The translations under genes were made by a program, and so were the position numbers. From contig JAHQWW010000007.1 in the NCBI GenBank assembly GCA_029856365.1, positions 10,863-74,862 of the forward strand: 64,000 nt of DNA, in the 5' to 3' direction. Below, one piece after another: positions 27,112-37,234 of this stretch. Within the stretch, counting starts at the first letter, position 1, and every line of letters begins with the position of its first letter. This DNA comes from Candidatus Hodarchaeota archaeon (GTDB lineage Archaea; Asgardarchaeota; Heimdallarchaeia; Hodarchaeales; Hodarchaeaceae). A model generated the notes under the pieces. That model made no database searches, had not been told where the DNA came from, and worked only from the letters and a program-made list of their open reading frames with translations.

Positions 27112-27660
27112 ATGCCTACAAAATTGTTTGGTCGAGAGATAGAAAATCAAATAGCATTTGTTGGCCTTGCAAATGCGGGGAAAACTACCTTAGTTAAAAG
27201 ACTTAAGGGAGACGATAATCTAGAAACCGTACCAACAATGGGGATGAATATTGAGACTTTAAAAATTGGTGACATTGAAGTAATGGCTGCAGATCTAGGA
27301 GGACAGGCAACATATCCGACGAGCTTATGGAAACCATTTGTTTCAGATGCATCAGGTATTGTGTTTGTATTTGATTCTGCAGACAGATCTAAAGTCGAGA
27401 ATGCGGGAAAGTGGTTGAAGAACGTCATTCAATGGGCGCCAGAAGATTCTGCATTTCTTTTCTTGGCAAATAAACAAGATTTAACAGAAGCAATGACTCT
27501 TGAAAGAATTATTTATACATTAGAACTTGAAAAAGAGATGGCTGCAAGACCTAGAACGTTTGCTGTTTATCCTTGTTCTGCATTAACAGGTGATGGGGTC
27601 GAGGAACCGTGGCAGTGGATGAGCGACAGGTTTCGTCATAGAATGTCACAAAAAAAATAG
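27112..27660 (+). CDS. Arf-family small GTPase 1
   Basis: GLANAGKTT, PTMGMN, DLGGQ, W, FVFDSAD, NKQD and CSALTGDG. Confidence 0.92.
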   Translation: MPTKLFGREIENQIAFVGLANAGKTTLVKRLKGDDNLETVPTMGMNIETLKIGDIEVMAADLGGQATYPTSLWKPFVSDASGIVFVFDSADRSKVENAGKWLKNVIQWAPEDSAFLFLANKQDLTEAMTLERIIYTLELEKEMAARPRTFAVYPCSALTGDGVEEPWQWMSDRFRHRMSQKK

Positions 27661-27669
27661 GTGCCCCAT

Positions 27670-28233
27670 ATGAGTTTCCTTTCAAAGCTTCGCGCAAAAT
27701 TTGCCAAAGAAAAATTAACGGTAAAGATCGCGTGGCTGGGTCTTGACCAGGCAGGGAAAACTACATTAGTCAAAAGAATAACATCTGGAGAGTTTAACAG
27801 TAGTACTTTCCGAACATTAGGGATGAATGTTGATGAATTTAGTTCGGGAAATGTTCGATTTATTTCTTGGGATATTGGGGGGCAAGAAGCCTTTCGTGAA
27901 TCTCTTTGGGAAAGCTATATGGCAGGTAGCATGGGAATCGTATATGTGGTGGATTCAGCCGATAGAGCTCGACTCTCAGAAGCTAAGATGGAATTATGGA
28001 AATATGTCCTTGATAATGATAAAGTTGAAAACATACCAATTTTAGTCCTTGCTAATAAACAGGATCTTGAAAATGCCGCTTCAGCTGGAGAGGTTGCTCG
28101 AGGGCTCAATCTTCATAAAGTTACGACACATTCATATGCTATCGTTCCCACGTCTGCCAAAACTGGTTTTAACGTTGAGGAAGGACTTGAATGGCTTCGC
28201 CAAAGGGTGACTGAAAAAATCGATCTCTTATAG
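27670..28233 (+). CDS. Arf-family small GTPase 2 with N-terminal amphipathic helix
   Basis: MSFLSKLRAKF, GLDQAGKTT, TLGMN, WDIGGQ, VVDSAD, NKQD and TSAKTG...GLEWL. Confidence 0.94.
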   Translation: MSFLSKLRAKFAKEKLTVKIAWLGLDQAGKTTLVKRITSGEFNSSTFRTLGMNVDEFSSGNVRFISWDIGGQEAFRESLWESYMAGSMGIVYVVDSADRARLSEAKMELWKYVLDNDKVENIPILVLANKQDLENAASAGEVARGLNLHKVTTHSYAIVPTSAKTGFNVEEGLEWLRQRVTEKIDLL

Positions 28234-28283
28234 TAAAATCTCTATAATATTCTGTTTCTTCATGGTAGATATTCTAAGTTAAT

Positions 28284-29093
28284 CTAACGTTTTTTCTTCA
28301 TGACTACCTTTTCAGAAACCTCATTAATCCGGTCACAAAGTGCAAGAAACAGTGCATGTAACCTTTCCAGATTCAAATCTTTGTTAATTCGTGCATAAAT
28401 ACGAATGGATGGATCATCAGCAGAATTGACAGAAATTCTAACAACTACTTTTCTAACATTATGAATCAGTTTCAAAAGGTTTTTATCACCGAGAAAGTAT
28501 GTTCCTGTCCGTTGGGTGGTCGCTTTAACCAAAAAAAAATCATCAAATCTTTTTACTCCGAGCTCGATGTCTTCAAGTGTAAACAGGAAATCTTGATGTT
28601 TTTTTATTTGACCTTCTTCATGTTTAGGTATGATCTGAATCTTGGTAGGAATTTGAGAACGGATTTCTCCCTTTTTTGAGTTTGCCTCTAGTGCTATATA
28701 ATCATTTACTCCTGCAAACCATGAGATGATGACTGATAACATGAGATGCCTTTCTTCTAGGGCAAATACCACACGGAAGTCTTGAAAGGGTATATCATGT
28801 GATCTCTTGTACTTGGGAAGTAACAAACCCCCGTTTGAACTCATTTCATCCATAACAAGATCATCGAATTCGTTTGTAAAGACTTCCAACAATGCTTCTC
28901 GTGATAATCGCATAATTTTGCGATTTTTTCGTCTTCCAGCCCATAAAAGGTAGAATGTAAAGAATAGAACCGTCCCTGGGCCTAAGAATATTAAAACATA
29001 GTCTATCATCCCATATCCTTCTTGGAGGAAAAAACGAGGAAAATTTTCTAGAGGAAACTCAAAAAATCCCAAATTCAACATCATTGAACTCAT
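28284..29093 (-). CDS. Single-pass membrane protein resembling CCDC47/DUF1682 (PAT complex subunit)
   Basis: TM followed by GRRKNRKI...L...F, then VFALEERHLMLSVIISWF...DYI and LHALFLALCDRI. The order and pattern follow CCDC47 as recalled. Confidence 0.6.
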   Translation of the reverse strand: MSSMMLNLGFFEFPLENFPRFFLQEGYGMIDYVLIFLGPGTVLFFTFYLLWAGRRKNRKIMRLSREALLEVFTNEFDDLVMDEMSSNGGLLLPKYKRSHDIPFQDFRVVFALEERHLMLSVIISWFAGVNDYIALEANSKKGEIRSQIPTKIQIIPKHEEGQIKKHQDFLFTLEDIELGVKRFDDFFLVKATTQRTGTYFLGDKNLLKLIHNVRKVVVRISVNSADDPSIRIYARINKDLNLERLHALFLALCDRINEVSEKVVMKKKR

Positions 29094-35324: not shown

Positions 35325-35331
35325 CTCTATC

Positions 35332-36222
35332 TCATGACATCTGAGCTTTAAATTGAGCCAATTTTTTAGAATACTTATCTGTAAGTTCCTTGTACTTTTG
35401 TTCTGAGATTTTACCACTGAGAAACATTTCATCAGCTTGCTCAAGCATTTGTTCATACTTTTTCACTTTCTCTGTTATGTCATCAAGCGACTTTCTTTCT
35501 TCTGTCAACTCTCGACGTTGCTCTAAAACTTGCTTCTCGACTTCATACGATAACAAGGCTTGATATTCATCAGGTACCTTGAAACCTCCAATATCCAAGC
35601 CAACTAATTCTAATCCCCAACGAGAGGTTTCGGGTCCAAGCTCTGAACGAGTTTGGATTTCCAAGCTTCTACGTTCCTTGAGCATCTCGGGTACAGAATA
35701 TCGTGACAATACATGTTTTACTGCTGCGATGATCGTTTGCTTGACCCAATTCTTCAATTCATCTCCAGAATAATATTTCTTATGCGAAACAATGTTCATA
35801 ATAAAATTACGGGGATTGACAACCCTCATACGAGAAATACCATAAGAACCTACCATTATATTATCAGAAGTATAAATCCCAGGTGTTCCCCATTTGATAA
35901 TGAATTCTCGTTTGGTTACCCAGATAATTTCACTTCCAGGCTGTTTTGCACTCTTATCAAGCTCATAAATACCACTTCCTGCGATCCCCACTAAAGATCC
36001 AGATTGTAGCAAAATGGCATTTTCTGGGTCTTTAACAATGAATCCATCATACTTCCGAAAACCATCAAGATCTTCGGATTTAATCCTACAAATCAATGAA
36101 CTTTTTGCTTCTGGGCCAAAATCTGAACTCAAAATCGATTTTCCCTTAAATTTCTTTGTTCCAATATGTACAGTATCGCCTATTCTACGAAATAATCCAC
36201 CATATTTCTCTACTTCTGCCAT
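35332..36222 (-). CDS. SPFH/Band-7 domain protein (YdjI-type) with coiled coil and SHOCT-like tail
   Basis: IVKDPENAILLQSG...GIY.L, IKWGT, G....RVVNP..F, WGLELVGLDIGGFKVPDE and GKISEQKY. Confidence 0.85.
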   Translation of the reverse strand: MAEVEKYGGLFRRIGDTVHIGTKKFKGKSILSSDFGPEAKSSLICRIKSEDLDGFRKYDGFIVKDPENAILLQSGSLVGIAGSGIYELDKSAKQPGSEIIWVTKREFIIKWGTPGIYTSDNIMVGSYGISRMRVVNPRNFIMNIVSHKKYYSGDELKNWVKQTIIAAVKHVLSRYSVPEMLKERRSLEIQTRSELGPETSRWGLELVGLDIGGFKVPDEYQALLSYEVEKQVLEQRRELTEERKSLDDITEKVKKYEQMLEQADEMFLSGKISEQKYKELTDKYSKKLAQFKAQMS

Positions 36223-36232
36223 AAGATTTCAC

Positions 36233-37234
36233 CTACCATCCATTGTCCCCATATAATCCAGGAAAATAATATTGATCTCCTGTATCAAGAGATGAAACTT
36301 TTCGTGCAATTTTTTGTTCAATAAGGCTTTCAAGAACTCTAATTACACGCTGATGATCCCATTTTGTTCCCATTACGACCTCTTCCAGTGTAACATATCC
36401 CTTATTAACTGCAAGATCAAAAACTTTCCTTGCATCGCTCCCGAGAGTGACTGGAACAAATTCTACTATCTTAACTCCGGATCGTTTTACAATTCCTTCA
36501 ATGAGAGATTGTTTTTTAAGGCGTTTACAGGATTTTTCCAGATCTTTTGTGGAGAATTCTACATCAGGAACTTGAGTTTTTAAGGCTGTATAGAGATTTG
36601 CCAGCGAAATATAACCACCAGAACTAGCTCGGAGATTTTTTCCATATTCAAGAATCAAATCGTCTAATGTTTCTTCAAACTTTCCTTTTCCAAACAGTTT
36701 TGGTTTTTTTGTTACATCTAGAGCAGTTACAGTCAAAGCGCGACCTTCTTTACGTAATAGCTCTTGCTCTAGCTGAGTAATCCGAGTATCGTATTTTTTC
36801 TGTAAGTTTTTAATGCTTTCAGTCGATACAGGGGCTCCATCAGCCAATTTTTTTTGAACTTGGACAACTTCATTTAGTCGAGTGATTTGTTCTCGAATCT
36901 CACGAATTTCATCTCGAATATCCAAATCCTCTTCCCCAAAATCAAGATCCTCTGCTAATCGCGTTGATTGGTCTGCAATTCGCTCACAGAGAATGGAAGC
37001 AAGCAATTGCGCAACCCGTATTTCACCACTCGATTTGAGATTGGATTTGGTTTGGTCAGGATGTAGAATGAAATCAGGAATAGTTTCACTTATATACCGA
37101 ATCTCCTCAAATTTTGTATAGATCCTCACCGTTATATCTGCGACACTTCGAGCATTCGTTGAAACACTATTATTTAAACGTGTCAAGGCATTACTGGCTT
37201 TTAAAAAGTATTCTTTCACGAATTTAACCACCAT
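36233..37234 (-). CDS. ESCRT-II Vps22/Vps36 (EAP30)-domain protein with N-terminal coiled coil
   Basis: GGYISLANLY...STKDLEKSCKRL...VEFVPVTLGSD..KVFDLA..KGYVT..V....W...R...VLE.L, the tandem winged helices of the EAP30 family. Confidence 0.8.
   Translation of the reverse strand: MVVKFVKEYFLKASNALTRLNNSVSTNARSVADITVRIYTKFEEIRYISETIPDFILHPDQTKSNLKSSGEIRVAQLLASILCERIADQSTRLAEDLDFGEEDLDIRDEIREIREQITRLNEVVQVQKKLADGAPVSTESIKNLQKKYDTRITQLEQELLRKEGRALTVTALDVTKKPKLFGKGKFEETLDDLILEYGKNLRASSGGYISLANLYTALKTQVPDVEFSTKDLEKSCKRLKKQSLIEGIVKRSGVKIVEFVPVTLGSDARKVFDLAVNKGYVTLEEVVMGTKWDHQRVIRVLESLIEQKIARKVSSLDTGDQYYFPGLYGDNGW

Follow-up and report, generated by a model that had tools for sequence, protein, structure and literature searches.

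Does a gene cluster that places a complete ubiquitin-like (Ubl) conjugation cascade among membrane-related genes encode one system, and if not, which of the neighbors belong with the cascade? The question is raised by a locus of 12 open reading frames (ORFs) at positions 27112–37234 of a 64,000-nucleotide stretch from a Candidatus Hodarchaeota archaeon (contig JAHQWW010000007.1 of GenBank assembly GCA_029856365.1), referred to here as the window. A sequence-only reading had joined all 12 genes into one module. Our analysis leans, with slightly better than even probability, toward a second, Hodarchaeales-specific ubiquitin-type system, in which a winged-helix protein with RING-like fingers (WH-RING) is the E3, a protein with a zinc finger and a UEV domain (ZnF-UEV) is an adaptor, and a pair of Vps22-like and SPFH proteins is the membrane client or platform. 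The window represents contig C91 of a 4.2 Mb assembly that is 84% complete; one of its genes is 61% identical to Ca. Hodarchaeum mangrovi, and its relatives are labelled Heimdallarchaeota/Hodarchaeales. The searchable set contained 21 genomes of the same genus, two of a sister family (G022 and G023) and 59 further genomes from the class. The 12 ORFs are all intact and form six units of alternating strand, with intergenic gaps of 0–129 nt within units, in the order Arf-Arf (+), E2-JAMM-CCDC47-like (−), ZnF-UEV/Ubl/E1 (+), a small zinc protein (−), WH-RING (+) and Vps22-like/SPFH (−). The Pfam families matched above cut-off are Arf (twice), JAB, UQ_con, Rad60-SLD (for the Ubl), ThiF, Band_7 and EAP30. 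A scan for bacterial promoters and terminators gave matches at chance level only.

The genes of the cascade are real and conserved, and on this point intact coordinates, Pfam matches and conserved motifs all bear out the sequence-only reading. The catalytic motifs are retained in 16–22 of 17–22 orthologues, depending on the motif. The Ubl (31436–31756, + strand, 106 aa) has a 22-residue N-terminal extension and a C-terminal GG that is invariant in the genus, where the protein is 77–99% identical. It was found in 22 of 24 Hodarchaeales and in none of the 59 other genomes of the class, and all 19 orthologues analyzed with Pfam matched both Rad60-SLD and ubiquitin. The E1 activating enzyme (31796–33025, +, 409 aa; ThiF 4e-55, with a weak E1_4HB match) carries a GxGGxG nucleotide loop and a PCT motif with Cys185, the eukaryote-like catalytic cysteine; in profile searches of the PDB it matched UBA1 at 1e-38, UBA2/UBA3 at 1e-30 and UBA5 at 1e-18. 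The E2 conjugating enzyme (29855–30397, −, 180 aa; UQ_con 2.9e-24) is Ubc4/UBE2D-like, with Ubc4/UBE2D rather than UFC1 as its best PDB matches, and its HPN motif and Cys98 are present in 20/20 orthologues. The JAMM/MPN+ deconjugase (29223–29822, −, 199 aa; JAB 1.4e-9) has the metal motif E72 with H128-x-H130-x7-S-x2-D, which is kept in 17/17 orthologues. Two other identities of the Ubl were considered. Although the Rad60-SLD score is slightly higher than the ubiquitin score, a SUMO/Ubc9 identity is not claimed because the E2 matches are of the Ubc4 type. Orthology with UFM1, suggested by eye, was ruled out by Pfam, the PDB profile and HHalign; the Pfam Ufm1 family matched 0/19 Ubl orthologues and nothing elsewhere in the genome.

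Asgard Ubl clusters are known as a kind, and the window locus differs from them as a separate variant that probably serves a Vps22-like/SPFH membrane module. The canonical ubiquitin-ESCRT (endosomal sorting complex) cluster of the same genome sits on another contig, C32 (G000:C32:7800-25900, L075–L081), so the window cascade is separate from it. The canonical cluster encodes an E2, a small RING protein, ubiquitin, an E1, a Yip1-like protein, a Rab-like GTPase, UEV-Vps23, Vps28, Vps22, two ESCRT-III proteins, Vps4 and Vps25 (several of these names were read from sequence and gene order), and it agrees with the cluster that Lu et al. (10.1101/2023.07.25.550441) and Hatano et al. 2022 (PMC9192718) describe for Hodarchaeia. 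The window locus shares with the described Asgard ubiquitin-ESCRT clusters (PMC9192718; 10.1101/2023.07.25.550441; PMC11188069) a Ubl ending in GG, an E1, an E2, a RING-like protein and a JAMM protein near an EAP30/Vps22 gene. However, its Ubl, E1 and E2 are of distinct lineages, its E3 candidate is large and UFL1-like, its Vps22 protein is a long paralogue that forms a pair with SPFH, and Vps23, Vps28, Vps25, ESCRT-III and Vps4 are missing from the locus, as the sequence-only reading had stated for most of them and in agreement with the ORFs examined. A FastTree phylogeny of the E1s, with a ThiF as root, places the window enzyme in a separate clade (support 0.998), apart from the ESCRT-linked and UBA5-like E1s; its sister group is the E1 encoded by a third cluster. 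The distinction from the described cluster, also part of the sequence-only reading, is thus upheld by both the canonical set on C32 and the separate E1 clade. The Ub-E1-E2-srfp(RING)-Rpn11 operon of Caldiarchaeum subterraneum (PMC5654768, PMC6043591) likewise unites the same five enzymatic roles in one locus, whereas the window has divergent multiple operons, an additional ZnF-UEV adaptor and a 583-aa WH-RING protein in place of the small RING protein.

The third Ubl cluster is common in Heimdallarchaeia (L056:5921-11582, L053–L074) and comprises two Ubls ending in STAG, an E1, an E2 and a JAMM protein, followed by a multi-pass membrane protein whose C-terminus carries a RING-H2-like finger, and then by another membrane protein. 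This architecture makes it a better candidate for a forerunner of endoplasmic reticulum-associated degradation (proto-ERAD) than the window locus. It was not found in the source assembly, at 84% completeness.

The WH-RING protein (33573–35324, +, 583 aa) links the locus to UFL1. Its AlphaFold model (pLDDT 86) has an N-terminal helix of its own, five to six winged-helix repeats in tandem, a RING-like region at residues 370–409, a zinc ribbon at 423–445, a further winged helix and a C4C4 RING-like finger at 534–575. The top five Foldseek matches were all UFL1 (E 3.6e-10 to 6e-8), VIA-align against UFL1 gave a Z-score of 10.1 (226–284 residues aligned, rmsd 9–13 Å; PCI domains tie with UFL1 over shorter stretches), and the sequence profile matched UFL1 in the PDB at 9e-7 and RINGs at 0.03–0.1. 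The alignment with full-length UFL1 begins at residue 58 of UFL1, the N-terminal helix of which binds the E2 (PMC10702826). Because all three methods give UFL1, the winged-helix part is well supported as a UFL1/DDRGK1-like scaffold. The zinc ligands are invariant in 19 orthologues, with eight conserved ligands in two domains. A RING fold is plausible, at scores below cut-off, so of the WH-RING E3 named in the sequence-only reading the winged helices are firm, the RING is plausible and the E3 activity is inferred. The C-terminal finger has the cysteine spacing of the TFIIH p44 finger, itself a weak profile match, which is not typical of an E2-binding RING. The family occurs in 23/24 Hodarchaeales and in 0/59 other genomes of the class. 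UFL1/DDRGK1 has been reported to originate from Asgards (PMC10183829), Asgard UFL1-domain fusions have been published (10.1101/2020.10.19.343400), and other Asgards have UFL1-domain proteins whose tails are of the adaptin/Vps28 type. Among these are 790-aa proteins (L262–L264) composed of a zinc finger, a UFL1-like winged-helix array and an adaptin/Vps28-like tail, encoded in genomes that carry the UFM1-type cassette described below and either unlinked to it or about 40 kb from it.

The tandem winged-helix backbone of UFL1/DDRGK1 is what the locus has in common with eukaryotic UFMylation (UFM1, UBA5, UFC1, UFL1/DDRGK1 and UFSP). In contrast, its protease is a JAMM enzyme, its ligase candidate has RING-like fingers, and its Ubl ends in GG, whereas a UFM1-type modifier has a single terminal glycine. 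The proposal of a UFMylation-like system therefore survives for the scaffold and fails for the cascade, because the Ubl, E1 and E2 are all ubiquitin-type.

The ZnF-UEV protein (30619–31413, +, 264 aa) consists of a C4 zinc ribbon, a UEV/RWD domain and a probable second, degenerate repeat. It had no direct match in PDB, Pfam, Atlas or the UEV/E2 profiles. Residues 64–155 matched the repeats of a 560–620-aa Asgard UEV-repeat protein (HHalign P 97.6%), the first repeat of which matched UEV and E2 profiles (P 93%). The E2 fold is thus supported transitively through this intermediate family, and the sequences support an assignment as an E2-fold (UEV/RWD) domain; the more specific BRE label of the sequence-only reading is unsupported, as Pfam BRE gave no match. 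The gene stands upstream of Ubl-E1 in every genome inspected, and in one genome (G016; L041:12205-14055) an inserted gene for a 616-aa TPR protein separates the E2 gene from the ZnF-UEV gene. The 560–620-aa protein itself (L299:3835-5601, L300–L306) combines about four UEV/RWD repeats with a RING-like finger at the C-terminus, a FANCL-like layout, and is encoded in about 40 genomes belonging to a different Asgard family. The gene for the small zinc-ribbon protein (33134–33448, −, 104 aa; weak zinc-ribbon matches) stays beside the WH-RING gene in both the genus of the window and the sister family.

The last unit encodes the putative membrane module. The long Vps22/EAP30 paralogue (36233–37234, −, 333 aa; EAP30 1.4e-10), 10 nt upstream of the SPFH gene, has a helical N-terminus, a hairpin resembling the steadiness box and tandem winged helices, and EAP30 is above cut-off in 16/16 orthologues. 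A Vps28 domain at its N-terminus was rejected (1/16 orthologues at E 0.046, HHalign P <1%). The SPFH/Band 7 protein (35332–36222, −, 296 aa; Band_7 7.8e-15, Band_7_1 2e-12) has neither a transmembrane segment (hydropathy maximum 1.18) nor an N-terminal membrane anchor. Its C-terminal hairpin matches the C-terminus of Vps23, i.e. the steadiness box (HHalign P 76%, E 2e-5), and the middle hairpin of the Vps22-like protein matches the SPFH C-terminus (HHalign P 80%). Published precedents (PMC11188069) are fusions of a steadiness box to Asgard Vps22 and the presence of SPFH genes in some ESCRT loci of archaea. A complex prediction for Vps22-like residues 1–172 and SPFH residues 212–296 scored 0.16, which speaks neither for nor against an interaction. 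ERLIN1/2-RNF170 offers the parallel of an SPFH gene beside a RING-like gene; the analogy drawn in the sequence-only reading breaks down, since the window SPFH protein has no membrane anchor and the window RING protein is soluble.

Which of these genes belong together was assessed from gene order. Exactly the same order is shared by 15 genomes of the genus and by three metagenome contigs. (In G006 the locus, L031 and L136, is split at the Ubl gene, a contig end versus 694 kb, a probable assembly artefact that was not counted.) However, the housekeeping genes on either side (ThrRS, PRTase and THUMP upstream; NAT, eIF2-alpha, S27e and GINS downstream) are about equally conserved in the genus, so genus-wide order says little. 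In the sister-family genome G022 this order is broken up into five blocks: ZnF-UEV/Ubl/E1; E2/JAMM; Vps22-like/SPFH/WH-RING/Zn; Arf-Arf; and CCDC47-like. There, JAMM still follows E2 and is followed by a peptidase gene, the Vps22-like, SPFH, WH-RING and zinc-protein genes are co-directional, and the SPFH stop abuts the WH-RING start. The Arf pair lies after an RPA-like gene and the CCDC47-like gene after unrelated genes, both near contig ends of this fragmented assembly; in G023, too, the CCDC47-like and Arf genes have unrelated neighbors. G022 has a second Vps22-like/SPFH pair (L168:10379-12085, on contig C105), the Vps22-like part of which is in two ORFs. In a further divergent genome, the ZnF-UEV/Ubl/E1 and Vps22-like/SPFH/WH-RING/Zn blocks lie 5.7 kb apart around housekeeping genes, and no E2, JAMM, Arf or CCDC47-like gene was called within 10 kb. 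The link between Vps22-like, SPFH and WH-RING genes thus holds, whereas that of the Arf and CCDC47-like genes fails, which divides the synteny proposed for the flanking membrane genes.

Beyond Hodarchaeales, the Vps22-like and SPFH genes are adjacent and co-directional in about 20 of 28 distant Asgard loci, and 13 loci, which represent two classes and show several gene orders, have a UFM1-type cassette beside the pair (L230:5331-8162, L253:3237-7269, L229, L232–L236, L248, L249, L251, L252 and L254; in two of the 13, contig ends truncate the locus and only part of the cassette is visible). The cassette encodes a UBA5-like E1 (PDB matches UBA5 1e-49, MoeB 2e-26), a JAMM protein, an 87-aa Ubl ending in RGxVG and UFC1, the latter above the Pfam cut-off. 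The Ubl is labelled UFM1-like because of weak Pfam Ufm1 matches, the RGxVG end and the UBA5/UFC1 neighbors; a profile built from the distant loci found no UFM1 chain in the PDB. A UFC1-like gene was detected by profile search in 24/300 Asgard genomes and in 0/23 Hodarchaeales, and outside Hodarchaeales this SPFH gene occurs in 16/24 UFC1-carrying genomes versus 9/253 others, a comparison in which related genomes are not independent. Since the pair stands beside both types of cassette, it travels with Ubl machinery of two types. The sequence-only view of the SPFH/ESCRT-II-like genes as Ubl-linked membrane genes thus gains from their recurrence beside Ubl enzymes across Asgard. The cassette is often joined by a 360-aa protein with a C-terminal zinc ribbon, and L248, L251 and L254 encode its Ubl and UFC1 as a fusion. 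It is possibly more interesting than the window locus itself. UFC1 has been reported as eukaryote-only (PMC10183829). A survey of the open literature, which did not extend to subscription papers, found no description of either the cassette or the window locus.

In the favored reading, the Ubl, which in the genus is translated with a free GG end, would be adenylated and thioesterified by the E1 at Cys185 and passed to Cys98 of the E2, with the JAMM protease removing or maturing it; these steps are proposed on the basis of the motifs and of established E1/E2/JAMM chemistry. WH-RING would likely be the E3, its RING-like domain recruiting E2~Ubl and its UFL1-like winged-helix arc binding the substrate or partners, and the ZnF-UEV protein would likely bind the Ubl or the E1 as an adaptor. 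The co-transcribed Vps22-like/SPFH pair would then be the client or platform, a peripheral membrane scaffold whose assembly may rely on the steadiness-box-like hairpins. In favor of this reading are the intact motifs across orthologues, the canonical cluster on C32, the separate E1 clade, the UFL1-like fold, the shared phyletic range of the Ubl and WH-RING families (22 and 23 of 24 Hodarchaeales), the 5.7-kb distance between the two blocks in the divergent genome, and the position of the pair beside WH-RING in the sister family and beside Ubl enzymes in the 13 distant loci. Several observations weigh against it. In G022, the E3, Ubl/E1 and E2/JAMM blocks are on different contigs and have other neighbors, and the link between blocks may be inherited regional order, since it includes housekeeping genes. 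Other E2s and RING proteins in these genomes could be the true partners. Matches of WH-RING to RING families lie at E 0.002–0.1, every one below cut-off, and B-box, C1 and double zinc ribbon score equally well. UFL1-like winged-helix arrays also occur in Asgard proteins of unrelated architecture, and the C-terminal winged-helix and zinc module has many paralogues in the genus.

A broader claim is more tentative. The pair may be an undescribed, ancient Asgard membrane module coupled to Ubl systems, served elsewhere by a UFM1/UBA5/UFC1 cascade that in Hodarchaeales was replaced by a ubiquitin-type one with a UFL1-like scaffold-RING E3. Slightly further from acceptance, and in our view rather unlikely, is that the locus holds two or more unrelated neighboring units, a soluble Ubl cascade and a Vps22-like/SPFH/WH-zinc-finger scaffold, with the 583-aa protein not acting as the E3 of the cascade. 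The five separable blocks of the sister family, the RING assignment below cut-off, the p44-like spacing of the C-terminal finger, and pairs that have no Ubl genes nearby (L250, L255, L257 and L258) all fit this explanation. It does not account for the matching phyletic range of Ubl and WH-RING or for the pair recurring beside Ubl enzymes elsewhere; moreover, the two blocks remain 5.7 kb apart in a different arrangement in the divergent genome, and the G022 WH-RING orthologue has a C3HC4-like finger.

Less probable still is an accessory arm of the ubiquitin-ESCRT system, in which the long Vps22 would pair with canonical Vps22/Vps25, the SPFH hairpin would join ESCRT-I, and Ubl-tagged cargo would pass to the ESCRT-III/Vps4 proteins encoded on C32. 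The steadiness-box-like hairpins of both proteins and the described archaeal precedents (PMC11188069) point in this direction, and as a downstream step such an arm would be partly compatible with the favored system. However, the hairpin similarity is moderate, and a reading of the distant loci detected neither an ESCRT-III nor a Vps25 gene in the vicinity of the pair, although L257 has a 745-aa AAA ATPase nearby.

The remaining genes are the probable passengers. Arf-family GTPase 1 (27112–27660, +, 182 aa; Pfam Arf E 6.5e-39) has an Arf GTPase domain and no clear N-terminal amphipathic helix. Arf-family GTPase 2 (27670–28233, +, 187 aa from the ATG) aligns from residue 1 with HodArfR1 (PDB 8OUL, E 3.5e-79), has an amphipathic N-terminal helix as read from sequence, and is a close relative and likely orthologue of this characterized protein (10.1101/2024.02.28.582541; PDB 8OUL/8OUK). 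It shares this N-terminus with HodArfR1, and there is no sign that it acts with the Ubl system. The CCDC47-like gene (28284–29093, −, 269 aa) lies 129 nt downstream of E2-JAMM in the same direction and encodes a single-pass membrane protein with one hydrophobic segment (residues 33–51). Its family matched Pfam CCDC47 (3.6e-6 at best; 0.016 here, below cut-off) and the bacterial DUF3137 (1.6e-7) about equally, and its nearest language-model neighbors were bacterial hypotheticals (0.95), followed by CCDC47 (0.83). A low-confidence model (pLDDT 56) aligned with chain 4 of the multipass translocon structure 7TUT, which we take to be CCDC47 (Z 6.5, rmsd 11, 163 residues aligned), and this was the sole full-length alignment. 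Foldseek with this model gave no match at E 0.001, and PDB profile searches were likewise blank. Remote homology to CCDC47 is therefore likely, and orthology and function are not claimed: the likeness to CCDC47 of the PAT complex concerns the globular part, and the 269-aa protein is much shorter and closer to prokaryotic hypotheticals. A search for Asterix, run without a working positive control, gave no match in five genomes. A second CCDC47-like paralogue has an unrelated neighborhood (G000:C21:5452-6312).

That all 12 genes form a proto-ERAD/UFMylation module tagging membrane or translocon proteins, with the CCDC47-like and Arf proteins as working parts, is improbable: despite the identical order in the genus, the position and remote likeness of the CCDC47-like gene and the UFL1-like E3 candidate, the housekeeping flanks (ThrRS, eIF2-alpha and GINS among them) are as conserved, the Arf and CCDC47-like genes have other neighbors in G022 and G023, the CCDC47-like protein is short, bacterial-looking and accompanied by an unlinked paralogue, none of the Ubl, E1 and E2 is UFM1-type, and the structural match to UFL1 spans only its residues 58–364. 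A translocon quality-control system is thus not shown by the locus, and the Arf pair and CCDC47-like gene are best seen as neighbors that would have been kept by genus-level conservation of gene order.

Elsewhere in the window, a Roadblock–MglA-like GTPase–Roadblock cluster is located at 41664–43637 and a further small GTPase at 22135–22836. A 560-aa coiled-coil protein is encoded at 54138–55820, and its homologue comes after an Arf gene in G023. A probable NEMF/Rqc2 ribosome quality-control gene, named from its sequence only, lies at 3384–5429, 22 kb from the cluster.

The Vps22-like/SPFH pair connects the locus to the Asgard UBA5-JAMM-UFM1-UFC1 cassette. If the pair is indeed an ancient Ubl-coupled module, a UFL1 scaffold would act as a RING ligase without UFM1, and the origin of UFMylation would be tied to an ESCRT-II/SPFH membrane process. 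The locus offers a small, fully clonable set for studying the role of a UFL1-like scaffold in the absence of UFM1, a matter that PMC10183829 leaves unanswered. A close relationship to eukaryotes has been proposed for Hodarchaeales, and the several parallel Ubl cascades with their own E1 and E2 enzymes in one archaeal lineage (that of the window, the ESCRT-linked one and the third, in relatives) suggest a diversification of modifier-specific pathways earlier than the origin of eukaryotes.

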